Positions 20,243 to 42,145 of a DNA stretch of 64,000 nucleotides are shown here, in pieces. This DNA is from Alphaproteobacteria bacterium (GTDB lineage Bacteria; Pseudomonadota; Alphaproteobacteria; RF32; CAG-239). The position numbers and the translations under genes are program-made. The notes under the pieces were generated by a model. That model searched no databases, had not been told where the DNA came from, and saw nothing but the letters and a program-made list of their open reading frames with translations. Within the stretch, counting starts at the first letter, position 1. Every line of letters begins with the position of its first letter. Location of the stretch: contig JAFTYO010000004.1 in NCBI GenBank assembly GCA_017464685.1, positions 1,306 through 65,305 on the forward strand, read 5' to 3'.

Positions 20243-20388
20243 AATAAAAATATTTTTTAGTTGTTAGACATCATAATTTTTTAATGTCCGAAGAATTAGC
20301 ATTTTTTACCTTATTTGTCAAGTATCATTAAAGCTAAGAGCCATCTTATTTGCAAAAAGTTTTATAATGCATCTTGAAAAGTAAATTT

Positions 20389-21462
20389 TTACACCCTATC
20401 AAAATTTATTCTCGGATCAACCAAAGAATAGGTTATATCGCTTACAAGTTTTAGTACCAAGCCCAAAAGCGCAAAGATATAAAGTGTGCCGAATATCACG
20501 GGATAATCACGCGTCATAATAGCCTCATAACCCAACAAACCCAATCCGTTTAACGAAAATACAACTTCAATCAGAAGCGAGCCCGTAAACAACATTTTTA
20601 TCAACAAAGAAGGAAATCCGGCAATGATAATCAACATTGCATTTCTAAACACATGCTTGTACAAAATTTGTTTTTCGCTCAAGCCCTTTGACCTTGCAGT
20701 TAAAACATATTGTTTGCTGATTTCATCAAGAAACGAATTTTTTGTAAGCATGGTCAGGGTGGCAAATCCGCCAATTACAATGGACAATACAGGCAAAGCA
20801 ATGTGATGAAAGTAATCAAATATTTTTTGCAAAAGGCTTATATCTTCAAAATTATCCGAAGTTAAGCCTCTCAGCGGAAACCATTGAAAATATGTTCCTC
20901 CGGCAAAAAACACAATCAAAAACACCGCAAACAAAAATACCGGTATGGCCGAGCCGAAGATAACCGCAAAAGATGTCATTACATCAAATTTTGAACCGTC
21001 GTATAAGGCTTTTTTAATCCCTAAAGGAATAGAAATTAAATATATAATTAGGGTTGACCACAAGCCTAACGATATTGAAACAGGCATTCTTTCCACAATG
21101 AGTTCACCTACGGTTTTGTCTTTATAATAGCTTTTACCGAAATCAAACTTGGCATAATCGGTTATCATCTTATAAAACCTTTCATACCAAGGTTTATCAA
21201 AGCCAAATTGTTTTTTTAATTCTTCAACCAAATCTTCCGGAACGCCTTGTGCACCGCGATATTGCATTTGTGATGAAGTGTTTTTTACATTTGCAACTGC
21301 CGTAAACTGAGCCTTAGAATCAATATTCATGCCCTGATATTTTGCCAACATATATTCCACCGGGCCACCGGGAGAAAGCTGTATGATACAAAAATTGATG
21401 GTCAAAATACCCAACAACGTCAGAGGAATTAAAAACAATCTCTTAATGATATAATTTCTCAA
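20389..21462 (-). CDS. ABC transporter permease, peptide/opine family (YejB/OppB-like)
   Basis: Six predicted TM segments and the EAA loop [20 protein letters not shown]. Overlaps the upstream binding-protein gene by 4 nt. Confidence 0.88.
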
Positions 21463-30656: not shown

Positions 30657-31934
30657 ATGTATAGAATAATCGGAAATATGACAGGAAATTCTATGGATGC
30701 CATTGACTTGGTGCTAACTGAGTTTGATGGTAATAAAATGACCGATCTCTACACCTTTTCTCGTCCATACACAAAAAATATGCAGAACCGCATCGAAAAG
30801 TTACGCACTCAAGTTTTTAATAAAACTTCAAATGAAATTGAAACCTTGCCGGAATTTTTAGATATACATAACGATTACATCAAACAAATTGCTGATTGTA
30901 TCAATGAGATGTGTCTGATAAATGGCATAGATAAATCAACTGTTGATGCAATTGGTTTTCATGGAAAAACACTTGACCATAATCCGCCATCTAAGGCCAA
31001 AACAGATAACACCGAGCCATATACTTTACAAATAGGTTCGGGACAAATGTTAGCCGACTTAACAGACATTGATGTTGTTTACGACTTTCGTTCGGATCCG
31101 GTAATGAATGATTTTGATGGAGCACCGTTGGTGCCAGTTCACAATGCACATATTTGTTGTTCTCAAGGAGATGGCATTTACTATAATGGAGGAAATACTT
31201 CCAATTTTGCCATAATCATCAATGGTAAAGCAATATTAGGAACAGATTCCGGACCATTTAATGAATATACGGATAATTATATTCGTATGCTATCTGATTA
31301 CAGTTTTGATAAAGATGGAATTTTTGGGCAAAATGGAAAATTAGATATACCATTATTGCAAAAAATTTTTCAATACGGGCGTTCTTTTTATGAAGCACCA
31401 TTACCAAAATCCGGAGATCCGGCATATTATCATAAAGATAAAATTTTTCAATATGTACAGCTTAACAGAATTAAATTTGAAGATGCTGTACATACTTTTG
31501 AATATGCAGCAGCATATATTGCTGCGCAAGCCTTAACTTTAATACCTGATAACATTGATATACCTAATCAATTCGTTTTGTTCGGAGGAGGTTGGAAAAA
31601 CCCTATTGTGCGTAAAAGTTTTGATAATATATTGTCAGGTAACGGTTTAATTTTATCGGAACATCAAGAAATTTTTACCAAATTGTGTTCAAGATTAAAA
31701 AATAATCTTCTAATAAAACAATCAAAATTTTCAGATTATATGGAAGCCCGCTTATTTGCTGATTTAGCACGATATAAATTAGAAAACAGAGCTTGGGAAA
31801 TTCCTGAAATTATTAATGCCGGCAAAAAAATTGTTTGCGGGGTCATCGCCAAACCACAAAACACCAATGGGAAATATAGCGATTATATTAATCGTGCAGC
31901 AAAAGGATGGCAAGACAAAACAACATTAAAATAA
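30657..31934 (+). CDS. anmK: Anhydro-N-acetylmuramic acid kinase
   Basis: N-terminal IGNMTGNSMDAIDLVL matches the AnmK pattern G.MSGTS.DG.D. Also FHGKTL.H, the GGN pocket and C-terminal GGG.KN. The ATG at 30657 is preceded by gagg. Confidence 0.82.
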   Translation: MYRIIGNMTGNSMDAIDLVLTEFDGNKMTDLYTFSRPYTKNMQNRIEKLRTQVFNKTSNEIETLPEFLDIHNDYIKQIADCINEMCLINGIDKSTVDAIGFHGKTLDHNPPSKAKTDNTEPYTLQIGSGQMLADLTDIDVVYDFRSDPVMNDFDGAPLVPVHNAHICCSQGDGIYYNGGNTSNFAIIINGKAILGTDSGPFNEYTDNYIRMLSDYSFDKDGIFGQNGKLDIPLLQKIFQYGRSFYEAPLPKSGDPAYYHKDKIFQYVQLNRIKFEDAVHTFEYAAAYIAAQALTLIPDNIDIPNQFVLFGGGWKNPIVRKSFDNILSGNGLILSEHQEIFTKLCSRLKNNLLIKQSKFSDYMEARLFADLARYKLENRAWEIPEIINAGKKIVCGVIAKPQNTNGKYSDYINRAAKGWQDKTTLK

Positions 31935-31960
31935 ATAATTTACATATACGAGAAATAAAA

Positions 31961-32773
31961 ATGGCAACAATTCATTTAATAGTAGGATTTATCGGGTTTG
32001 GCAAAACAACCATTGCAAAACAACTGGAACAAGAGTTATCAGCCGTACGTTTCACTCATGATGAAATTATGGTTAATCGCTATGGATCCAATCCGACCAA
32101 TTTTGAAACAAAATATGACATTGTTGACAACTATATAAAAAAACAAACTAAGCATCATATAGCTAAGAACATAGATGTTATCCTCGATTATGGTTTTTGG
32201 AATGATACAAAACGCCAAGAATATTATAATTGGGCAAAAAATTTAACTGAAAATGTAGTATTTCATGTTGTTGAATGTGATTTAATTGAAGCAAAACAAC
32301 GAACTTTAGAACGTACTAAAAAAGATAAAAACTCTCTTTTTGTTGATGAAGTCATATTTGACTCTCTTTTACAGCATTATCAACCATGGAGTTTGAATGA
32401 TAATTATCCGGTTGTTTTTCATAATGCTCCACCCCAAAAATATATAGGAAACCTTGTTCAAGTTAAAGTTGATCGACCTAAAGGCAGTAAACACCCCAAA
32501 TATGGTTTTGAATATCCGGTAAATTACGGATATGTGCCATTTACAAAATCGGGGGATGGTGAAGAATTAGATGCTTATGTTTTGGTGGAAAACAAACCTT
32601 TACAAAATTATGTCGGTCGATGTATCGGAGTTGTACATCGCTTAAATGACGATGATGACAAACTGATTGTTGTCCCTGAATCATTTGACTTAGACGATGA
32701 AGATATTGAAGCAAATATTGAGTTTCAAGAAAAATGGTTTGAGCATATTCTTATCAGAGATTCTGATATTTAA
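31961..32773 (+). CDS. Fusion protein: N-terminal P-loop kinase (AAA_33/zeta-like NTPase fold) plus C-terminal short family-I inorganic pyrophosphatase-like domain
   Basis: Walker A VGFIGFGKTTIAKQL with D..(F/W) downstream. The C-terminal VDRPKGSKHPKYGFEYPVNYGYVPFT..GDGEELDAYVL....GVVHRLNDDDDKLIVVP parallels the PPase motifs YP.NYGFIP.T...DGDP.D.LVL and D..G.D.K..AV. Confidence 0.65.
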   Translation: MATIHLIVGFIGFGKTTIAKQLEQELSAVRFTHDEIMVNRYGSNPTNFETKYDIVDNYIKKQTKHHIAKNIDVILDYGFWNDTKRQEYYNWAKNLTENVVFHVVECDLIEAKQRTLERTKKDKNSLFVDEVIFDSLLQHYQPWSLNDNYPVVFHNAPPQKYIGNLVQVKVDRPKGSKHPKYGFEYPVNYGYVPFTKSGDGEELDAYVLVENKPLQNYVGRCIGVVHRLNDDDDKLIVVPESFDLDDEDIEANIEFQEKWFEHILIRDSDI

Positions 32774-32854: not shown

Positions 32855-32990
32855 ACCTCAAATTTGATTTAAATTCACATTAAGACTCTTTTTACTTGCA
32901 AAAAAAAAAAACGGTTTAAGATACGACCTGAGAGGTAAGTTTTTGACCTTTCAAATTAAGTTTAACTATTTTTATAAAGGATTTAAAATT
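32855..32990 (+). promoter_or_regulatory. Conserved promoter + 5' UTR element, copy A (repeat of 41428-41565)
   Basis: The 68-nt core 32855-32922 matches 41428-41495 at 66 of 68 positions. It contains TTGCAA, an A12-containing spacer and TAAGAT (TATGAT in copy B). The UTR stem-loop is t-gagagg (32929-32935) paired with cctttc-a (32947-32953). The leader and RBS (aaaggatttaaaattATG) are also similar. Confidence 0.6.
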
Positions 32991-33446
32991 ATGAGAAAAT
33001 ATTTTCTTCTTACTGCTACGGCTCTTTTGAGCGCAACAAATGTTATGGCTGAAAGCAATGCTTATTCAGAATTATCTGTTAACGCTACCATTGCACATGC
33101 TAATGAAATTACATGTTCTGATGTAAATTTTGGCACTATTTATTTAAAAGCTAATCATGGTGATTTAGTTGTCGATTTAGTCGATGATCTTGTGTTAGAA
33201 TCTAACAGTAGCGATTATGTAAGCTCAACTGACACAGCATCAGCTTACTGTGAGTTAAATGAAGATTCTGAGATGCTTTTTTCATCTGAAACTGTAACAC
33301 TGAGCGCCGAAGGAGAATCAAAAGTTTTAACATTCAAACCTGAACAATGGTCTAGATCATCTATTAATGGAACTTTATCTATTCCTGCCGGTGTAACTCC
33401 AACAAGTTATACAGGTTCATTTGAGGTAACATTCCTTAACCTATAA
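32991..33446 (+). CDS. Small secreted beta-sandwich protein, DUF4402/spore-coat-U (SCPU)-like, paralog A
   Basis: Signal peptide MRKYFLLTATALLSATNVMA followed by ES. It has ITC..(V)NFG.I near the N-terminus, a second conserved Cys, and the C-terminal G.L.I......SYTGSFEVTF pattern typical of that family. The start is trimmed from the track ORF (32943) to the ATG with an RBS. Confidence 0.65.
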   Translation: MRKYFLLTATALLSATNVMAESNAYSELSVNATIAHANEITCSDVNFGTIYLKANHGDLVVDLVDDLVLESNSSDYVSSTDTASAYCELNEDSEMLFSSETVTLSAEGESKVLTFKPEQWSRSSINGTLSIPAGVTPTSYTGSFEVTFLNL

Positions 33447-33450
33447 ACTT

Positions 33451-33485
33451 AATACCGCCTCCTTTAAAGGAGGCGGTATTTTTGT
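33451..33485. terminator. Rho-independent terminator (30-nt perfect palindrome), shares its stem with the terminator at 42118
   Basis: aataccgcctccttt/aaaggaggcggtatt followed by a T run, between the convergent paralog A and fabZ. Confidence 0.8.
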
Positions 33486-33488
33486 TTC

Positions 33489-33941
33489 TTACTGATTTAT
33501 AATCATTGCGGAAAATTCGGCTTCGGATACAACTTGTCCATCAACCGTACATTGTCCCTTAAACACATATATATTGCGGCGCTCTTTGATTTTTTCAACA
33601 TGCATACGAAGTTGGTCGCCCGGTTTTACCGGCTTTCTGAACTTTACGCCATCAACCGACATAAACAATACACCTACTTTTTTATTAGCATAATCTTCAT
33701 CTTTTGCGGTTACGATAGCACCTGCCGTTTGAGCCATTGCCTCAATTTGCAACACACCGGGCATTACCGGATTGTTCGGAAAGTGTCCTTGAAAAAATTC
33801 TTCATTCATGGTTACATTTTTTATACCCACACCTTTTTCACCTGCGACCTCAACTTCCAATCTGTCAATGAGTAAAAACGGATAACGATGAGGTAACAAT
33901 TTTAATATTTCTTCAATCGGATATACTTTAATTTCTGACAT
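33489..33941 (-). CDS. fabZ: 3-hydroxyacyl-ACP dehydratase FabZ
   Basis: LPHRYPFLLIDR, FF.GHFP..PVMPGVL.IEAMAQ, F.G...VDG. Confidence 0.95.
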   Translation of the reverse strand: MSEIKVYPIEEILKLLPHRYPFLLIDRLEVEVAGEKGVGIKNVTMNEEFFQGHFPNNPVMPGVLQIEAMAQTAGAIVTAKDEDYANKKVGVLFMSVDGVKFRKPVKPGDQLRMHVEKIKERRNIYVFKGQCTVDGQVVSEAEFSAMIINQ

Positions 33942-33966
33942 ATTTTTTTCCTTCTTTTAATATTAA

Positions 33967-34980
33967 TTATTTTTTACTGTTTCTTTGTAAAAACGATACT
34001 TGGCGCATAAAATCTTTAAACGGTACTGCCGGTGTTCCCATAACAACCGTTTGAGCTTCAACATCACGCATAATGCCCGATTGCGCACCGATTTGAGCTC
34101 CACTGCCAACCGTTAAATGGTCGGCAAATCCGGTCTGTCCGCCACAAACAACATAATCACCGAATGTACAACTTCCGGCAATTCCGGTTTGTGAAACAAT
34201 GATACACCCCCTGCCCATTTTATCATTATGTGCAATTTGTACCAAGTTATCAATACGGCAACCGTCACCGATTATGGTATCATCTAATGCCCCTCGGTCA
34301 ATACAACTGTTTGCGCCGACTTCAACATCATTACCGATAATAAGTCTTCCTACTTGCGGTATGCGAATATGTTTACCTCCAATAGTGTTAAAGCCAAAAC
34401 CGTCCGCACCGAGTTTGGCACCGGCATAAATATAACAATCGTTACCCATAATGGTATAAGTCACATATGCACCGACACCGATACGGCAATTATTACCGAT
34501 TTTACAACCTTTTCCGATATAACAATTTGCTTCCAATCGGCAATTATCCCCTATAAGCGCATCATCTTCTATCACAACATTGGCACCGATATAACAATTT
34601 TGCCCGACTTTTGCGGTTTTAGCAATTGTGGCGCTTTCATGAACCATATTTTCAGGAACATATTCGGCATACATTGCCTGATTTAATTTTAAAAATGCAA
34701 GTTTCGGATTGTCAACAACCAAAACACTTATCCCGTAGGGAATCCAACTTTGCAAATCCTGATTGGTAACACAAGCCTTTGCTTTAATATTTACCGCTTT
34801 TTCTTTTGCCTTTCTGTCATAGAAAAAACAAATTTCATTACTGCCGGCTTTTTCCATCGTGGCAATATCATAAATTTTATCTTTCGGATTACACGAATCT
34901 GTAAACTCTGCACCAATTATTTTTGCAATTTGCTCTAGTGTAAACGGTCCGTTGTTTTTAAAAAATGCAGTATCAACCAT
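33967..34980 (-). CDS. lpxD: UDP-3-O-acylglucosamine N-acyltransferase
   Basis: N-terminal LpxD domain followed by many hexapeptide (left-handed beta-helix) repeats and the HN catalytic context (QIAHND). Sits between bamA and fabZ. Confidence 0.93.
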
Positions 34981-34994
34981 ATATTTTCTCCTTA

Positions 34995-37256
34995 TTACAA
35001 ACTTGTACCAAAGTTAAGACGAAATACTTCTTTTTGGTCGTAGTCTTCTTTTACAATCGGGAAACCGAAATCGATATCAATTTTTCCCATCGGTGAATAC
35101 CATTCAAATCCGAAACCGACCGAAACTCTCGGTTTTGAAGAATATTCAACATATTTTGAATCTATATCATCAGGTTTGCCGATAACACCGGCATCAACAA
35201 AGGTACGACCCCTGATACCAAGTTCATCAAGCCCTAACGGGAACATCAATTCGGCACCACCATAAATAACCCAATTTCCACCTAAGGCATCATCCGTATA
35301 TATATCTCTTGCACCAACTCCGCTATATTCAAAACCACGAAGTGTATTTCCGCCTAAATAATAGCGCTTGGATAAACGAACATCTTCATCACCATAACTG
35401 GTAACATATCCGCCGTTGATGTGGGTTTTTAATGTCCAATAGTCATTAAAAGTAACAAATTTATATGCTTTAACATCAAATTTGAAATATTTTTCATCAC
35501 CGCCAAGACCCGAAATATCATTGCCGAATGACAAATAATATCCGTCTTTTGTTCTCAAAGCATTGTCACGTTTATCGTACACTAATGTTTGTCCGATAAC
35601 AGAATCTGTGCTTTTGCCCTCTTCTCTTTTAATATATATTGAAGCAAAATCTTTAACATCTTTAATTTCATCACGACTTAATGTATACCGAACAGTTTGA
35701 TATAAATTATCAGTGTAATTCCAACCTAAACGAATTCTGCCACCGACACTTGCACTGTCATATGAGCTTTCATCTTGATAACTTTCATCATTGTAAAAAA
35801 CATCAGCTCCGGCACTTAACCGCCTGCCCAAAAAGTATGGCTCGGTAAAACTCATTGAATAATCTTTTGAACGCTCGGATACACTTGCATCAACACTAAG
35901 CCTTTGCCCTTTACCCATAAAATTATTTTCGGTTACACCTGCTTGTACCAAAGCTCCGTTTACGGTAGAATATCCGATGCCCACATTAAAATATCCCGTT
36001 GATTTTTCTTCAACTTCAACATTAATATCCGCTTTTGAATTATCCAAAGGTACCGGATTAATTTCAACCTTACTGAAATAATTTAAGTTTTCAATATTAC
36101 GTCTGGAATCACCAATCTTTGATACATTAAAAGCATCACCTTCATCTAGTCGAAACTCTCTTCTGATTACTTCATCAAGTGTTCTGGTATTGCCCATAAT
36201 ATTAATACGATTTACAAAAGTTCTTTCACCCTCTAATATATCAAAAACAATTTCCATCTTATTATTCTGCATATCTTTATTAAATTTGGGCACAACATCT
36301 ACAAACACAAAACCTTTTTTTCCCAACTCTTCAGTAATGCGTGAGACAGAATTTTCAATTTTATTTGCATTATACCAATCTCCTTTAGAGAAAGTAACAT
36401 AATTTAAAAAGTCTTCTGTTTTAATTTCTTTAATTGCCGAGTTTATTTTAATATCACTAATTTCATATCTCGGTCCTTCATCTAAAGAAAAATTCAAAAT
36501 AAACGACTTTTTATTCGGCGCTAATTCTGCAATTGCAGATATAACCTGAAAATCGGCATAACCATGCTCGGTATAAAAACGGCGCAAAAGTTCTTTATCA
36601 TAATTCATTTTCTCAGCATCATATGTTTCTGAACTGGAAAAAATTCTATACCAACGGCTTTCTTTACTCATAATTTCTTCTTGTAAATCAGAGGAAGAAT
36701 AATGCGTATTTCCTAAAAAATTGATTTTATCAATTTTAGCTGCTGGCCCTTCATCAATTTCAAAAATTAAATCAACACGATTATCATCTCGCTCAATCAA
36801 CTTAGGTTCAACTTCAACCGAATAGCGACCTGAACGTTTATATATTTCTAAAATTCGTTGAACATCTTGTTGAACTTTTGCTTTACTGTATAATGAGTTT
36901 GGCACACTTTGAACTTCATCTTCCAAAATTTTATCATCAAGTTTTTTGTTGCCGTCAAAGGCCCTTTGACCAATAACCGGATTTTCTTCCAATTTAACAA
37001 GCAACACCCCACCTGACTTATTTTCCATCTGGATATCTGAAAACAGTCCGGTAGCATACAAATTTTTCAAAGCTCCATCTAGTTTACTTTGCGTAACATT
37101 ATGTCCTTTTTTAAGTCCCAAATACGCCAAAACAGTTTCTTCTTCAACTCGTTTAAGTCCTTCAATTTCTATATTGCCGATATAATAGTTTGCAGCCAAA
37201 ACATCTGAAATTGCAAATCCGACCATCAATATAGATACAAACAACGCTTTTTTCAT
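34995..37256 (-). CDS. bamA: Outer membrane protein assembly factor BamA
   Basis: Signal peptide, five POTRA-like repeats (I..I.IEG..RV....), and a C-terminal Omp85 barrel ending ...FRLNFGTSL. Confidence 0.95.
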
Positions 37257-37274
37257 CTTTAATTTCCTTATTTT

Positions 37275-38411
37275 TTAAGAATTAAACCAACGATTGAATA
37301 AATGTACAATATCATTATAAGTAGCAAAAACCATCAATGCGAGTAACAACGCAAATCCGGCACGAAACAAATAATCTTTTACTTTTTCATTAAGTTCACG
37401 TCCTGTAACAATTTCAATAGTATAAAAAACAACATGACCACCATCTAAAACCGGTATCGGAAATAAATTTATTAAGCCCAAATTCACTGACAACAATGCC
37501 ATAAACACTATAAAATTTAAGATACTGTGACTTTTTGAAATATCACCTGTCATCTCAGCAATACGAATAATACCTCCGATATCATCGCTTCCTCTGTCGC
37601 CTTTTATCATTTGTGCAACACCACGCAAAGTGGTGGCGGTAACATCATATACCTCCTCAACGGCATAGACAAATGCCTTGTGTAGCGGTGTTTTTTCATC
37701 TGATGTTTCAATCTCGCTAATCGATTTTACACCAAGCATATGTCTTTTTTCTTTTGTTCCATTGGCATCATCTGTTTCAATTTCGGTTAAAAGAATGTCA
37801 AAATTTAACACATCTTCACCACGTTTAACTTCAATTTTGGTCTTATAATCAGCTGCCATAGAAACTTCACGGGCTATATCGGCAAATTCTTCTATTTTTA
37901 CACCATTTATGCTTAATATCCTATCACCTTTTTCAATACCGGCATCATAAGCAGCGCTGTTTTCTAGAACTTCACCAACAATCGGTGGAAAAGTGATTTT
38001 TCCCAAACAAGCAAACAGACAAGTGTAAATCAAAACTGCAAACAAATAGTTGAAACCAGGACCAGCCAACACTATTGCAAGTTTTTTATAAGGACTCTGA
38101 AATGCAAAAGCTCTTTTTTTCTGTTCATCGGTAAGTTTTGATATATCAGATGTGGAAGATGAAGCTTCCTCATCTCCCAGAAATTGACAATATCCACCCA
38201 AGGGAATAGCAGATATTTTCCAAACTGTACCTTTTTTATCTGTTCTAGACCATATAACTTTGCCGAATCCTATTGAAAATGCACTAACCTCCACACCTGA
38301 AATTCTGGCAACGATAAAATGACCAAATTCATGTACAAACACTAATATTCCAAGTAAAATTATAAACGGAATTATATAGTGCACTATATTGAAAATAATT
38401 TCCATATTCAA
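37275..38411 (-). CDS. rseP: RIP site-2 metalloprotease RseP
   Basis: HEFGHF zinc motif in TM1, a central PDZ domain (AA..AGI..GD.IL.ING) and NLFPIP.LDGGH in the C-terminal TM. Confidence 0.93.
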   Translation of the reverse strand: MNMEIIFNIVHYIIPFIILLGILVFVHEFGHFIVARISGVEVSAFSIGFGKVIWSRTDKKGTVWKISAIPLGGYCQFLGDEEASSSTSDISKLTDEQKKRAFAFQSPYKKLAIVLAGPGFNYLFAVLIYTCLFACLGKITFPPIVGEVLENSAAYDAGIEKGDRILSINGVKIEEFADIAREVSMAADYKTKIEVKRGEDVLNFDILLTEIETDDANGTKEKRHMLGVKSISEIETSDEKTPLHKAFVYAVEEVYDVTATTLRGVAQMIKGDRGSDDIGGIIRIAEMTGDISKSHSILNFIVFMALLSVNLGLINLFPIPVLDGGHVVFYTIEIVTGRELNEKVKDYLFRAGFALLLALMVFATYNDIVHLFNRWFNS

Positions 38412-38427
38412 AAACCACCTTTATCTT

Positions 38428-39270
38428 TTATAAACCATATGCAAATAACCAATACACAAACGGAGCTGCAAAAATTAAGCCATCAACTCTGTCGAAAACA
38501 CCGCCATGCCCCGGAATTAAAGAACTTGAGTCTTTAACTCCCAATTTACGTTTAATTGCCGATTCGATCAAATCACCAATCTGAGAAACCGCTGCAATAA
38601 TACCACCTAACACAACAAAAAATGTCTGTGTATTATTATCTATTTTAATTACAGAAAACTCAGCTAAAATCCAAATGTATATATAACTTGCAGCCATTGC
38701 AAAAACAATTCCGCCAATTAAACCGGACCATGTTTTATTAGGACTGATTTTAGGAGCAAGTTTTGGTCCCTTTACATTGCAACCTACAATAAAACCACCT
38801 ATATCCATTGCCCAAACCATTATAAAAAACCACAGTGTCATATAAAAATTATACGGATGATGAACTAACACACCATGATAAATCCACAACAAAGATCCAA
38901 CGCCGATTGAAATGTATGAAACACCCAATGTCAACAAATTACGATGTTCTTCACTCTTTGCCTTAAACCATACAAAAAAACTTACCAAAACAATTGTTGA
39001 TATAATCATTGGGGTATCATACACAAACAGTGAAACAGCAAGCGATGTTATATATGCAGCCAAATATGTCGAAGATGACTTGCTGGGCATCATATTCGAC
39101 CATTCCCAAGCCAGAAGAACACCAACTATAAGTGCCAACACATCAACAAAAGGATACCCTCCCCATAATGCCCCTATTGCAACCGGTAACATCACTAACG
39201 CTGTCAAAATTCTTTTTGCCAACGAACCAAATTTTTTGGCTGTTTTCTTTTTTGTTTTAGGCCTTGCCAT
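38428..39270 (-). CDS. cdsA: Phosphatidate cytidylyltransferase
   Basis: Polytopic protein with the C-terminal signature S..KR..GVKDSS.LIPGHGGV.DR.D. The start is trimmed to the ATG at 39270 (MARPKTKKK). The track ORF extends 34 codons into uppS. Confidence 0.9.
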   Translation of the reverse strand: MARPKTKKKTAKKFGSLAKRILTALVMLPVAIGALWGGYPFVDVLALIVGVLLAWEWSNMMPSKSSSTYLAAYITSLAVSLFVYDTPMIISTIVLVSFFVWFKAKSEEHRNLLTLGVSYISIGVGSLLWIYHGVLVHHPYNFYMTLWFFIMVWAMDIGGFIVGCNVKGPKLAPKISPNKTWSGLIGGIVFAMAASYIYIWILAEFSVIKIDNNTQTFFVVLGGIIAAVSQIGDLIESAIKRKLGVKDSSSLIPGHGGVFDRVDGLIFAAPFVYWLFAYGL

Positions 39271-39961
39271 ATCTTCTCTCCCTTGTTTTAAAATTTTCAA
39301 CAATATTAATAAGTTCTTTTTCCGTAAAATCCGGCCATAACGTATTTGTAAAAAACAACTCCGAATACGCAATCTGCCACAATAAATAATTACTTATTCT
39401 TTGTTCTCCACTTGTGCGAATAACTAAATCAGGATCTGGAATATCTGAGGTGTACAAAAGCTTTGAAAACATATTTTCATTTATATCCTCTGGCATAATA
39501 TCGCCTTTAGCAACAAGCTCCGCTGCTTTTTTTGCCGCATGAACAATTTCTTGACGAGAGCCATAACTTAAGGCAACCTGCAAAGTCATGCCTTTATTCT
39601 TTCGAGTTTCTTGTTCTAAAGCATCCATTTTTGCCACAATATCTGCATCAAGCATATACTTTTCACCGATAAAAATTATGCGAATATCATTTTTTTTCAG
39701 GTCTTCAAAATTTTTATCCAAATATTCTCTCAACAAATTCATCAAGCCTGAAATTTCTTCATCACTTCGCTTCCAGTTTTCGGTTGAAAAAGCATAAACC
39801 GTTAAATATTTCACTCCTGTGTTTTTAGCCGCTTTTGCAATTTCAAGTAAGGTTTGAGCCCCTTTTTTATGCCCTGCATTACGGACAAGGCCTTGTTTTT
39901 TTGCCCACCTACCGTTACCATCCATAATTATGGCAATATGTTCCAAAGTTTTATCAGCCAC
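39257..39961 (-). CDS. uppS: Undecaprenyl diphosphate synthase
   Basis: HIAIIMDGNGRWA, YAFSTENW.R, IRTSGE.R.SN.LLWQ.AY.E. Confidence 0.95.
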   Translation of the reverse strand: MADKTLEHIAIIMDGNGRWAKKQGLVRNAGHKKGAQTLLEIAKAAKNTGVKYLTVYAFSTENWKRSDEEISGLMNLLREYLDKNFEDLKKNDIRIIFIGEKYMLDADIVAKMDALEQETRKNKGMTLQVALSYGSRQEIVHAAKKAAELVAKGDIMPEDINENMFSKLLYTSDIPDPDLVIRTSGEQRISNYLLWQIAYSELFFTNTLWPDFTEKELINIVENFKTRERRYGKA

Positions 39962-39972
39962 TGCACAAAACC

Positions 39973-40536
39973 CTAAACTTGCATAATATCTTTTTCTTTT
40001 TGAGCCTGCAAATCATCAACTTTTTTAACAGCATCATCTGTAATTTTTTGAATATCAGTTTCAGCCTTTTTTTCTTCATCCTCCGAAATTAAATTATCTT
40101 TTTTAAGTTTTTTAACCTCATCAAGGGCATCACGACGAATGTTTCTGATTGCAACTTTGTTTTGTTCGGCATATTTACCGGCAACTCTTACAAGCTCTTT
40201 TCTGCGTTCTTCACTAAGTGGCGGTATAGGTACCCTGATTAACGTTCCATCCGACACCGGATTTAATCCTAAATCGCTTTCTCTTAAAGCCTTTTCAACA
40301 CTTTTTGCAATCGACTTATCCCAAACACTAACCGACAGTGTTCTGGCATCAGGGACACTAACCGTTCCGACCTGAGAAATCGGAGTTAAAGAGCCATATG
40401 CTTCAACCATAATACCATCAAGCAAGCTTGCATGAGCACGACCTGCACGCAACCCGCCGAAATCAACCTTTAACGATTCCAAAGTTTTATCCATACGAGT
40501 TCTCGCATCATTTTTAATATTGTTAATATCAGACAT
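39973..40536 (-). CDS. frr: Ribosome recycling factor
   Basis: 187 aa with RTGRA-like GLRAGRA, P.TEERRKELVK-like PPLSEERRKELVR, and RNIRRDA. Confidence 0.95.
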   Translation of the reverse strand: MSDINNIKNDARTRMDKTLESLKVDFGGLRAGRAHASLLDGIMVEAYGSLTPISQVGTVSVPDARTLSVSVWDKSIAKSVEKALRESDLGLNPVSDGTLIRVPIPPLSEERRKELVRVAGKYAEQNKVAIRNIRRDALDEVKKLKKDNLISEDEEKKAETDIQKITDDAVKKVDDLQAQKEKDIMQV

Positions 40537-40537
40537 T

Positions 40538-41257
40538 TTAACCTCTATTTTTAATTACTGTAAATTTTCCTTTAGCACATACGGCATCTACTATTGAATT
40601 TTCTGATTGTTGTGAAAACACCACAATTGAAATATTATTTTCTTGAGCCATTGTTATGGCTGTTAAATCCATGACCCTAAGTTGTTTTTGCACAACTTCT
40701 TCAAAAGATATTTCATCAAAACGTTTAGCCATAGAATTTGTCTTCGGATCAGAATCATACACCCCATCAACCTGAGTAGACTTTAATATGGCATCGCAAC
40801 CCATTTCACAAGCACGCAATGCAGCTCCGGTATCTGTTGTAAAATACGGATTTCCGGTACCTCCGGCAAAAATTATGACCTTGCCATCACCAAGGTTTTT
40901 TATAGCCCTGCGATATATATACGTTTCACACACCTGAGGTATTCTCAAACCTGACATAACAACAACTCTCAAACCTTGCTTTTGTAAAGCATCTTGCAAA
41001 AACATAGCATTCATAACTGTTGCCATCATACCGATTTGATCAGCAACACTTCTGTTCATACCGGATGCCGCTTCCTTAGCTCCTCTAAAAATATTGCCTC
41101 CACCTATAACTAAACATACACCAACTCCCATACTATGTATAGATTTAATTTGTTTAGCAATATTTAGAACAATATTACCATCCACACCGAAAGACTTATC
41201 ACCCATAAGACCTTCGCCGGATAATTTTATTAAAACTCTTCTATAAGCAGGTTGCAT
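40538..41257 (-). CDS. pyrH: UMP kinase
   Basis: YRRVLIKLSGE, VIGGGNIFRG, FAGGTGNPYFTTDT, VDGVY.DP. The start is trimmed to the ATG at 41257, which has an aaggtg RBS. Confidence 0.93.
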   Translation of the reverse strand: MQPAYRRVLIKLSGEGLMGDKSFGVDGNIVLNIAKQIKSIHSMGVGVCLVIGGGNIFRGAKEAASGMNRSVADQIGMMATVMNAMFLQDALQKQGLRVVVMSGLRIPQVCETYIYRRAIKNLGDGKVIIFAGGTGNPYFTTDTGAALRACEMGCDAILKSTQVDGVYDSDPKTNSMAKRFDEISFEEVVQKQLRVMDLTAITMAQENNISIVVFSQQSENSIVDAVCAKGKFTVIKNRG

Positions 41258-41427
41258 AAAAACACCTTTCCATTTTGTTTTTTCCATATTAACGACTTTA
41301 TAGCAATTGTCACACCATTTTTCCACGATGTTAACAATTTATAAACATTAATTGTTTTTTATAAATTTTTTCACGCTTTAAAATAACTGCATATCGATTT
41401 ATCAACAATATATTATATTTTCATTTT

Positions 41428-41565
41428 ACCTCAAATTTGATTTAAATCCACATTAAGACTCTTTTTACTTGCAAAAAAAAAAAACGGTTTATGATGTGAT
41501 GTAAGAGGTCAAAATTGCCCTCTTAAAACTTAAAGTTAAACTGTTTTTAATAAGGATTAAAAATT
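41428..41565 (+). promoter_or_regulatory. Conserved promoter + 5' UTR element, copy B (repeat of 32855-32990)
   Basis: Core 41428-41495, containing TTGCAA, a spacer and TATGAT. The UTR stem-loop is t-aagagg (41502-41508) paired with cctctt-a (41519-41525). The leader is taaggattaaaaattATG. Confidence 0.6.
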
Positions 41566-42051
41566 ATGAGAACATATTTTCTTCTTGGTGCTGTGGCAAT
41601 GTTAATGACAACCACCGCCAACGCAACAAATCCGATAGCGGCAGGTGCTTTTCTAGCACAAGCGGCAATTGTTATGGCGGATTCTATAACTTGTAATGAA
41701 GATTTAACTATGGTGGCTGTTACAGATGATTCAAAATCAATTAATGTAACTATTAATCCTGACGGAAGTATTGAACGCAGTGCTCATCTTATACATATAG
41801 AAGGCACACCGGCCAAATGCACAATATCAAATGGAGTATTTACAAATATAGACAATTTTTCTGTTTCTCAAGAAACTGTTGTTTTTGAACCATCTTCTGA
41901 ATCTGATACGGCTCCAACTCTTTCAGATTTTACTTTTGCAATTGCTAATGATGGAACATCAGTATCTATCGGAGGCAATTTCTACATAGACAGTCCAACA
42001 TCATCAAGCACCTACACTTCTATTGTTTCTGTTATGTATTCATATGAATAA
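41566..42051 (+). CDS. Small secreted beta-sandwich protein, DUF4402/SCPU-like, paralog B
   Basis: Signal peptide MRTYFLLGAVAMLMTTTANA. The ITC motif and second Cys are conserved with paralog A. The C-terminus reads IGGNFYI....SSTYTSIVSVMY. Confidence 0.65.
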   Translation: MRTYFLLGAVAMLMTTTANATNPIAAGAFLAQAAIVMADSITCNEDLTMVAVTDDSKSINVTINPDGSIERSAHLIHIEGTPAKCTISNGVFTNIDNFSVSQETVVFEPSSESDTAPTLSDFTFAIANDGTSVSIGGNFYIDSPTSSSTYTSIVSVMYSYE

Positions 42052-42117: not shown

Positions 42118-42145
42118 TACCGCCTCGTTAGAGGCGGTATTTTTA
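42118..42145. terminator. Rho-independent terminator sharing its stem sequence with 33451-33485
   Basis: taccgcctc-gtta-gaggcggta followed by T5, between the convergent paralog B and clpX. Confidence 0.8.

Follow-up and report, generated by a model that had tools for sequence, protein, structure and literature searches.

A predicted promoter and 5′ leader module, with a conserved hairpin and a poly-A spacer, before a large family of diverged secreted-protein genes in uncultured alphaproteobacteria

Why should two genes whose products (151 and 161 amino acids, aa) can be aligned only over residues 1-45 be preceded by almost the same non-coding DNA? The question is raised by a stretch of 64,000 nucleotides (nt) of contig JAFTYO010000004.1 (positions 1,306 to 65,305; assembly GCA_017464685.1, Alphaproteobacteria bacterium), hereafter the window, in which positions 32855-32922 (copy A) and 41428-41495 (copy B) differ at only two of 68 positions, T/C at 32875/41448 and A/T at 32919/41492. 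A preliminary description of this DNA had read the pair as a duplicated promoter and 5′ untranslated region (UTR) in front of two diverged paralogs. The answer reached here is that the element is probably the common 5′ expression module of a large, fast-diversifying family of secreted DUF4402-type proteins, in a clade of AT-rich alphaproteobacteria of which metagenome assemblies, some of them from ruminant gut samples, are the only record to date. Over about 120 further copies, both the shared promoter/5′-UTR device of diverged paralogs and its structure-conserved stem-loop were upheld; the earlier interpretation was essentially right but understated, since the scale of the family and the possible meaning of the A12 run were missed. 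The parts of the two copies are as follows.

32855..32874 (+), copy A, upstream conserved box ACCTCAAATTTGATTTAAAT, at a sharp rise in the conservation profile of 83 copies
32875..32883 (+), copy A, short variable block TCACATTAA between near-invariant segments, with 28 variants among 96 copies of the related genome SIG55 (see below)
32884..32922 (+), copy A, putative core promoter GACTCTTTTTAC-TTGCAA (32896-32901)-spacer-TAAGAT (32917-32922), near-invariant in at least 117 copies; start site predicted
32900..32911 (+), copy A, A12 homopolymer between -35 and -10, the sole A/T run of 10 or more in the window besides its twin
32929..32953 (+), copy A, hairpin TGAGAGGT/ACCTTTCA, beginning 6 nt past the -10, a predicted 5′-terminal mRNA stem-loop
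32954..32990 (+), copy A, remaining 5′ UTR with Shine-Dalgarno AAGGA at 32977-32981, one of about four interchangeable UTR variants
32991..33446 (+), copy A, gene for a diverged, secreted DUF4402 member of 151 aa, signal peptide MRKYFLLTATALLSATNVMA, predicted to fold as a beta-sandwich
33451..33480 (+), copy A, intrinsic terminator, 13-bp stem and T run
41428..41447 (+), copy B, upstream conserved box, identical to that of copy A
41457..41495 (+), copy B, putative core promoter with TTGCAA 41469-41474, A12 41473-41484 and TATGAT 41490-41495
41502..41525 (+), copy B, hairpin TAAGAGG/CCTCTTA, with two pairs double-changed relative to the family consensus TGAAAGG/CCTTTCA
41526..41565 (+), copy B, remaining 5′ UTR with AAGGA at 41552-41556
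41566..42051 (+), copy B, gene for a 161-aa secreted DUF4402-like protein
42118..42139 (+), copy B, terminator, a bidirectional hairpin common to convergent clpX

The likeness of the two copies lies on their 5′ sides. Within the window, a 42-nt piece of the core is present exactly twice, and none of 100 shuffles contained it. Just downstream, both copies were confirmed to form a 7-bp stem, TGAGAGG (32929-32935) pairing with CCTTTCA (32947-32953) in copy A and TAAGAGG (41502-41508) with CCTCTTA (41519-41525) in copy B. The second pair of the stem is G-C in copy A and A-U in copy B, with both sides altered, which is the compensatory change originally pointed out, and the fourth pair is G.U in copy A and G-C in copy B. 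The leader is conserved again, with AAGGA followed by some eight codons that are alike in the two genes, and both proteins start with a signal peptide (MRKYFLL and MRTYFLL). The coding DNA diverges more than the 5′ side, as had been judged by eye: 117 of 139 aligned positions are identical in the 5′ modules and 292 of 520 in the coding regions. Of the flanks, to which gene conversion had been suggested to be restricted, only the 5′ side is conserved; the 3′ sides are not shared and each gene has its own terminator.

A search of the wider genome for further copies had been proposed at the outset. One genome per species was scanned with the exact pattern GACTCTNTTTACTTGCAAAAAA-N(0-12)-CGGTTTA. 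At least 95 stretches were returned, and all those listed came from one related metagenome-assembled genome (MAG), Alphaproteobacteria bacterium SIG55 (SUUV01), a low-coverage assembly (~ 2.8x) that holds at least 117 distinct copies; the core of these copies is partly invariant by construction, because it served as the search pattern. Where the listed matches had enough flanking DNA, 82 of 90 open reading frames (ORFs) start with MRKYFL, and six more of the 90 are family members, with a start of MKKYFL or MSKYFL or with an upstream in-frame ATG taken as their first codon. About 95% of the listed copies sit before MRKYFLL... DUF4402-like genes. The family ORFs encode 140-185 aa, and the median pairwise identity among the 84 that start with M(R/K/S)KYFL is 33%.

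The family was also reached from the protein side. A first search with the copy B protein returned only itself, and a profile was needed to reach the family, giving 185 relatives via a word index and 484 cluster representatives in an exhaustive search. Every named profile hit belongs to an 'Alphaproteobacteria bacterium' MAG with locus tags IJ019, E7016 or IJF12. The MAG from which the window comes has a G+C content of 35% and IJ019_ locus tags, and was recovered repeatedly from one metagenome set (labels XIEF21-1); these labels may be those of a study of ruminant gastrointestinal MAGs (PMC8199421). The species of the window carries further copies of the element on other contigs, with tracts of A10, A12, and A9, and a third MAG, GCA_017408505.1, carries the element with A12. 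Beyond these genomes, a pattern scan of metagenome contigs gave only six chance matches, all within unrelated coding regions, and a pattern scan of viral contigs gave no element. Rfam searches at gathering as well as relaxed thresholds, run on the window, on the element, and on a SIG55 locus, returned no family and only chance-level hits, the single match in the window at gathering score being a tRNA-Lys. No description of the family was found in the literature searched, none of which mentions DUF4402. In function, the element would bring together three known devices, namely a conserved family promoter whose spacer tract is mutable, of the vlp or fim type, a 5′ stem-loop leader of the ompA or papA type, and the concerted evolution of 5′ ends in a family of surface proteins. 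What is unusual is its copy number and its dispersal among housekeeping genes.

That dispersal bears on a point raised in the preliminary description, namely that the element might turn out to be a generic dispersed repeat unrelated to these genes. Half of this is true: the element is highly dispersed, yet it is tied to the gene family. It could be that it is a mobile or miniature transposable repeat with a chance outward promoter, an account that would fit the high copy number, the dispersal between housekeeping genes, the breaking of contigs within the element, and the presence in the window of a decayed copy without a gene. Such an account appears the least probable of those considered here, because no conserved second end or terminal inverted repeat was seen, only a sharp 5′ edge; the 3′ ends of the genes are unconserved and are flanked by unrelated terminators; a secreted-protein ORF always follows the element, at a constant distance and in one orientation; and the element is absent from the viral contigs scanned. 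The decayed copy is the following.

20335..20397 (+), decayed third copy with promoter and hairpin (TTGCAAAAAG...CATCTTGAAAAGTAAATTTTTACACCC) and an A5 tract, no ORF after it (found by nhmmer at E = 1.5e-4, using a profile built from 49 SIG55 copies)

This copy is intergenic, between two minus-strand genes, and is probably the relic of a lost family member. Near the syntenic spot, SIG55 has an intact element (locus L035) on the opposite strand. Contigs of many samples were also seen to begin or end within the element, in the A tract, the hairpin loop or the UTR (loci L003-L007, L106, L115-L117, L119, L124-L126, L138-L139, L147-L149, and L153-L154), and contigs that end inside an element are the usual signature of a repeat. 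As assemblies break within the element, the MAGs of this lineage probably under-count and fragment the genes of the family, and may mis-join them.

The forces that keep the copies alike can be separated to some extent by comparing species. The window and the DNA of SIG55 are syntenic, with housekeeping genes 80-91% identical. In the window, the genes of copies A and B flank a minus-strand pyrH-frr-uppS-cdsA-rseP-bamA-lpxD-fabZ cluster (33489-41326), with clpX and clpP after copy B; the fabZ-to-frr block is 86% identical in SIG55, which also has a family gene with its element at the orthologous site next to fabZ, although the family coding sequences there are unalignable. Among the matches listed, the 68-nt core of the window is identical to SIG55 copies at a median of 94% and a best value of 98.5%, a closeness comparable to that between copies A and B, and the copy B core is identical at 67 of 68 positions to a SIG55 copy in locus L034. 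The core is therefore constant between species, which gene conversion within a genome could not achieve alone, and purifying selection is indicated.

Recombination has left its own marks. Among the SIG55 copies, almost every pairwise combination of variable block, 6-nt discriminator, and UTR variant occurs. The closest protein paralogs, those of copy A and P0004 (75% identical), have different UTR variants, while the distant copies A and B have the same one, and the block variant CACATTAAG is found in three copies of the species of the window and is not among the SIG55 variants listed. The near-identity of the modules would accordingly be best described as the product of purifying selection together with short-tract gene conversion; cis-regulatory function and gene conversion, which had been put forward as alternatives or companions, are thus both indicated, the one by identity across species and the other by the reassortment of blocks. 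It might instead be argued that the process is one of neutral concerted evolution only, in which gene conversion homogenises the 5′ ends and neither the sequence nor the hairpin has a function. The free reassortment of polymorphic blocks, the mismatch of UTR variant and protein relationship in copies A, B, and P0004, and the occurrence of CACATTAAG outside the listed SIG55 variants would all be expected in that case. However, the core identity of 94-98.5% between genomes whose housekeeping genes are 80-91% identical, the one-sided changes in the stem (43 to G.U and none to A.C, described next), and the stopping of homology between gene classes exactly after the -10 speak against it, and purely neutral homogenisation is judged improbable. 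That the element is a promoter/5′-UTR module under selection is concluded with high confidence. Separately, genes for 100% identical proteins were seen with different variable blocks, hairpins or whole upstream flanks between samples (L118-L123 for P0030, L140-L146 for P0018, and L133-L137 for P0006). Such flank swaps stem either from recombination or translocation among strains or from contigs joined chimerically across the ~ 170-nt repeat, and they were not counted as evidence of recombination.

The hairpin was then followed through the family. All 100 distinct variants fold into a stem-loop that begins 6 nt past the -10 and, when the arms are anchored, the seven basal pairs are standard in 99 of them. 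One-sided changes in the stem gave 43 G.U pairs and no A.C pair. Pair 8 is found as UA, UG, CG, and GC, so that the covariation support called for in the preliminary description is present at this position. The stem is 7-11 bp long and AU-rich, with folding energies of -5 to -18 kcal/mol, while the upper stem and the loop are variable (loop 3-12 nt, span mostly 24-26 nt). The fraction of paired cells was 96.6%, compared with 29-65% when the partners were slid, and the covariation score lay above that of all 500 shuffles. Note that MAFFT shifted the 3′ arm of copy B by one column, such that the count made by the tool misses the two compensatory pairs of this copy, which the anchored count has.

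One interpretation of an inverted repeat in this position is that it is a DNA operator for a dimeric repressor and not an RNA hairpin. It overlaps the predicted +1 to +25, a typical operator position, and its half-sites, TGAAAGG and CCTTTCA, are highly conserved. Against this, the distance between the arms varies, the upper stem changes in sequence yet stays paired, both half-sites of copy B are altered in a complementary manner, and the asymmetry between G.U and A.C is specific to the sense strand; an operator is accordingly considered very unlikely. The G.U-only pattern on the sense strand and the variable spacing of the arms indicate an RNA hairpin instead of a protein-binding DNA palindrome, and comparison of the variants shows a conserved sense-strand RNA structure. 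A stem starting 6 nt past the -10 predicts a hairpin at the very 5′ end of the message, with an unpaired tail of 0-3 nt. By analogy with better-known leaders, it is plausible that this hairpin is a 5′ mRNA stabiliser against decay of the RNase E/RppH type.

The assignment of the upstream part as a promoter was examined in the same set of copies. Conservation sets in abruptly at TACCTCA(W)(W)TTTGATTTAAAT, dips over a variable block of ~ 10 nt, and is near-complete from GACTCTTTTTACTTGC-A(n)-CGGTTTATGATG through the hairpin, leader, ATG, and signal peptide, before decaying in the mature coding region. The upstream box of copy A, which lies at about -74 to -55 from the predicted start and forms the abrupt 5′ boundary of the element, contains the palindromes TCAAATTTGA and ATTTAAAT and may be an activator or UP-like site. 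The strongest argument comes from other genes. The promoter half without the hairpin leader precedes a 242-aa Cys-rich secreted protein, MIKMFLFVLLVFPLVSEATTC... (L029 3604 (+), L045, and L073 4384 (+)), and a more diverged promoter half with A12 or A10, again with no hairpin leader, lies before ORFs like those of type-IV pilins with the N terminus MRKICEIGRSMVEMLGVLAIIGV (L060 ~ 325 (+) and L067 (-)). Homology among the three gene classes ends right after the -10 (TAGAAT/TATGAT), while the TTGC...TAnnAT positions are kept. This break just past the -10, together with the kept TTGC...TAnnAT, is the best support for a promoter with its start a few bases downstream, and the element can be inferred to be a promoter module driving transcription. 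The promoter-like hexamers and the A12 run between them are present as first described; the spacer, in contrast, is 15 nt and not the 16-17 nt that had been implied, because TTGCAA (32896-32901) shares its last two bases with the A12 run (32900-32911) and the -10 lies at 32917-32922. By eye, the consensus sequences of sigma-54, extracytoplasmic function (ECF), and sigma-28 factors were also compared, as was a promoter on the other strand, and none fits; in the case of sigma-54, TTGCA resembles the -12 element, but the GG at -24 is missing.

The A tract is the most distinctive part of this promoter. No A/T run of 10 or more other than the two A12 runs (32900-32911 and 41473-41484) occurs in the 64-kb window, and these two lie between the -35-like and -10-like hexamers, which is the layout of a phase-variable promoter spacer. 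In 673 kb of SIG55 loci, 122 runs of 11 or more are in the exact context of the element; outside it there are seven runs of 10 or more, each of them a variant, diverged or contig-end-truncated version of this promoter. Tract lengths, read from consensus assemblies only, were 9 (2 copies), 11 (14), 12 (98), and 13 (3) among the at least 117 SIG55 copies, all tracts being pure, and 12, 12, 12, 12, 10, and 9 in the species of the window. When seven loci were compared across independent assemblies, 31 tracts were at the mode of their locus and five deviated, these being A11 at P0017, A11 at P0018, and A13 twice and A10 once at the P0030 locus. It is possible, though doubtful on sequence evidence of this kind, that the A tract is a phase-variation switch.

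As to the gene products, 101 of 117 family relatives match Pfam DUF4402 (PF14352) at E <= 0.01, with a best value of 4.5e-10. The proteins of the window themselves score below the DUF4402 gathering threshold of 25.2 bits (18.7 for copy A and 24.6 for copy B) and are, by transitive homology, diverged members of a DUF4402-related subfamily. Three parts of the proteins are conserved, namely the signal peptide, the next ~ 30 residues (TTDYAEVTAKATIEVA...C..DFGTIVVK), and a C-terminal strand (IPA.V.AG.YTGSFTVT). An AlphaFold2 model built from a 117-sequence alignment (predicted local distance difference test, pLDDT, of 84) gave a beta-sandwich over residues 41-151 with the N-terminal 40 residues disordered, while a sequence search of the PDB found no match. 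The family proteins are predicted to be beta-sandwiches with a weak likeness to the fibre subunits of chaperone-usher systems. Hydrophobic residues alternate in their conserved N-terminal segment, TTDYAEVTAKATIEVA, as would befit a donor strand, which is a lead and not a result. With regard to a possible surface role, the proteins carry signal peptides and differ strongly in their mature regions (median identity 33%), and the fold is pilin-like only at a non-significant level.

Taken together, these data would be accommodated by a module that reads, from 5′ to 3′, as a two-palindrome box, a variable block, TTGCAA-15 nt-TA(A/T)GAT with a spacer that is mostly A12, a hairpin, an AU-rich AAGGA leader, and the start of a signal peptide. 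The module would drive transcription of each family gene; the hairpin at the 5′ end would shield the mRNA from RNase E/RppH-type decay, as in ompA and papA; purifying selection and short-tract gene conversion would keep the module uniform; and slippage in the A tract may shift the -35/-10 spacing, tuning or switching each paralog independently, as in vlp and fim2/fim3/fimX. In its fullest form, offered here tentatively, this would be a contingency system of more than 100 dispersed genes for fibre- or pilin-like surface subunits, each independently switched or tuned by slippage of its promoter poly-A. A12 would then represent a sub-optimal 15-nt spacer at which most copies idle at a low level, rare slips of +1 or +2 would turn single copies on, and any copy that is on would owe a high mRNA stability to the common 5′ hairpin.

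A number of observations count against this scheme. A simple sigma-70 scan does not call the TTGCAA/TA(A/T)GAT pair (8 of 12 matches, 15-nt spacer), and the best hexamers give a 15-nt spacer at the modal A12, whereas a crude census of promoter-like pairs in these genomes has a weak peak at 16-17 nt, a census that is too weak to tell whether A12 is the active or the low state. Length differences at the same locus are few (five of 36), several of the deviants are at contig ends of low-coverage assemblies, where homopolymer errors and misassembly are likely, and no A14 copy was seen among the copies listed. The sharp A12 mode would be expected of a fixed structural spacer no less than of a switch. 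The single-sequence folding energy of the copy A leader is unexceptional (z = -0.5). On the protein side, the top Foldseek hits, Caf1 and CsuA/B, are non-significant (E 0.2-0.6, template modelling score, TM, up to 0.51), and no chaperone or usher gene is found among the immediate neighbours, which are housekeeping genes, the rest of the genome not having been searched for them.

Several of the same data would be explained by a shared regulon promoter without phase variation, in which A12 serves as a rigid spacer of fixed length, a single transcription factor or sigma factor reads the palindromic box and the core, the DUF4402-like, pilin-like, and Cys-rich genes are co-regulated, and the length variants are sequencing noise or slightly deleterious mutations. 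The strong mode at A12 (98 of the 117 listed copies), a tract that is never interrupted, nor its flanks, the conservation of the upstream box with TCAAATTTGA and ATTTAAAT, the use of one promoter half by three unrelated classes of secreted protein, and the absence of change in 31 of 36 same-locus comparisons are all in its favour. However, an A12 run is intrinsically prone to slippage, and contingency loci classically keep such a tract between -35 and -10 (PMC2268961, PMC1891110); tract length does differ in about 16% of paralogs and in some same-locus comparisons; these genomes have no other long homopolymers; and the simultaneous expression of more than 100 divergent paralogs would be without obvious rationale. 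A fixed-spacer regulon is consequently also regarded as no better than a tentative possibility.

If the module works as proposed, an uncultured lineage of gut alphaproteobacteria has a very large and hitherto undescribed repertoire of variable secreted proteins, and the module core of 35-40 nt offers a simple sequence handle with which every member could be found. The system would also constitute a natural experiment, in that the coding sequence diverges nearly to saturation behind a promoter, mutable spacer, and 5′ hairpin that stay constant. Should the contingency system be real, it would amount to antigen or phage-receptor variation of the Mycoplasma Vlp kind in a Gram-negative gut bacterium, on a scale nearing that of the surface-antigen families of eukaryotic parasites.

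Some further features of these genomes were recorded. In SIG55, a second conserved repeat of ~ 160 nt lies directly before 36 of 90 copies of the element. It has the form ...CCTCATACTTTGCAAC..CCTCCTAACTGTCACTCCGGCACTTGATGCCGGAGTCC..GGATACCGGTGTCTATTCCAAGCTAAAGCTTGGGCACCGGTATGAC..GAGAGACACCTCTAC, with 1-4 tandem 38-nt units (examples at L048 ~ 5700-6100 (-), L076, and L016 6460-6904), and gave 81 nhmmer hits in the SIG55 DNA fetched and none in the window. Its consensus folds at -63.6 kcal/mol, with apparent covariation of CCAAGC/GCTTGG versus CCGAAC/GTTCGG, and it has no match in Rfam. At the other end of the genes, the terminators of both window genes (33451-33480 and 42118-42139) and of many SIG55 family genes have similar G+C-rich stems, ACCGCCTC(C)...(G)GAGGCGGT. 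The idea of a conserved 3′ module was nevertheless rejected, as the terminators differ from gene to gene, though many share a stem of the ACCGCCTC/GAGGCGGT type. Elsewhere in the window, positions 50204-50337 and 51752-51885 form a 134-nt direct repeat with 81% identity, the two units being 1548 nt apart. The repeat is contained in a minus-strand ORF of 1038 aa (~ 48874-51990) without a hit in Pfam, and probably reflects an internal protein repeat. Finally, in the gene just upstream of copy A (31907-32773 (+)), an AAA_33 kinase-like domain is joined, unusually, to part of an inorganic-pyrophosphatase domain (profile positions 31-107 of 153).

Among known systems, the module may be set beside the vlp genes of Mycoplasma hyorhinis, and with them maa2 of M. 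arthritidis and vmm of M. mycoides. The vlp tract is reportedly poly-A. As here, there are several paralogs with a promoter each, a conserved promoter, leader, and signal peptide are joined to a divergent mature region, and a repeat tract whose length differs between copies lies between -35 and -10. In vlp, maa2, and vmm, insertions and deletions in the repeats of the -35/-10 spacer switch transcription (PMC2268961), whereas switching in the present case is only a candidate mechanism. The host here is a Gram-negative alphaproteobacterium, and the proteins are not lipoproteins and are without internal tandem repeats. The vlp genes form one cluster of few genes, in contrast to the more than 100 copies, single or in short arrays among housekeeping genes, described above, where in addition the modal spacer is 15 nt and there is an extra conserved 5′ hairpin.

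The fim2, fim3, and fimX genes of Bordetella are likewise unlinked paralogs with a conserved promoter element that bears a homopolymer. Fimbrial subunit genes at separate loci there have in common a 'fim box' and a C-stretch, which ranges from 10 to 18 nt between strains and alters transcript abundance (PMC1891110). The Bordetella tract is poly-C and is placed between the site of the BvgA activator and the -10, whereas here poly-A lies between the -35-like and -10-like hexamers, and three or four genes are concerned as opposed to more than 100. The assembly operon of the Fim subunits is known, and these are classical pilins of the chaperone-usher type, while the proteins here are only pilin-like candidates. 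In the same way, the family resembles DUF4402 proteins, Caf1, and CsuA/B in the Pfam matches of its relatives and in a beta-sandwich model with a disordered N-terminal segment, but differs from Caf1 and CsuA/B in that the fold matches are non-significant and no chaperone or usher gene is adjacent.

For the hairpin, the nearest likeness is to the ompA and papA transcripts of E. coli, whose 5′ stem-loops protect the mRNA from decay that depends on its 5′ end (Belasco and colleagues, as cited in PMC3997798). In both cases a short hairpin is at or near the mRNA 5′ end, predicted here, and in ompA and papA the transcript is an abundant one for an envelope protein or a pilin. The stem of the present family, in comparison, is only 7-11 bp and AU-rich, and its position relative to the 5′ end is a predicted one.

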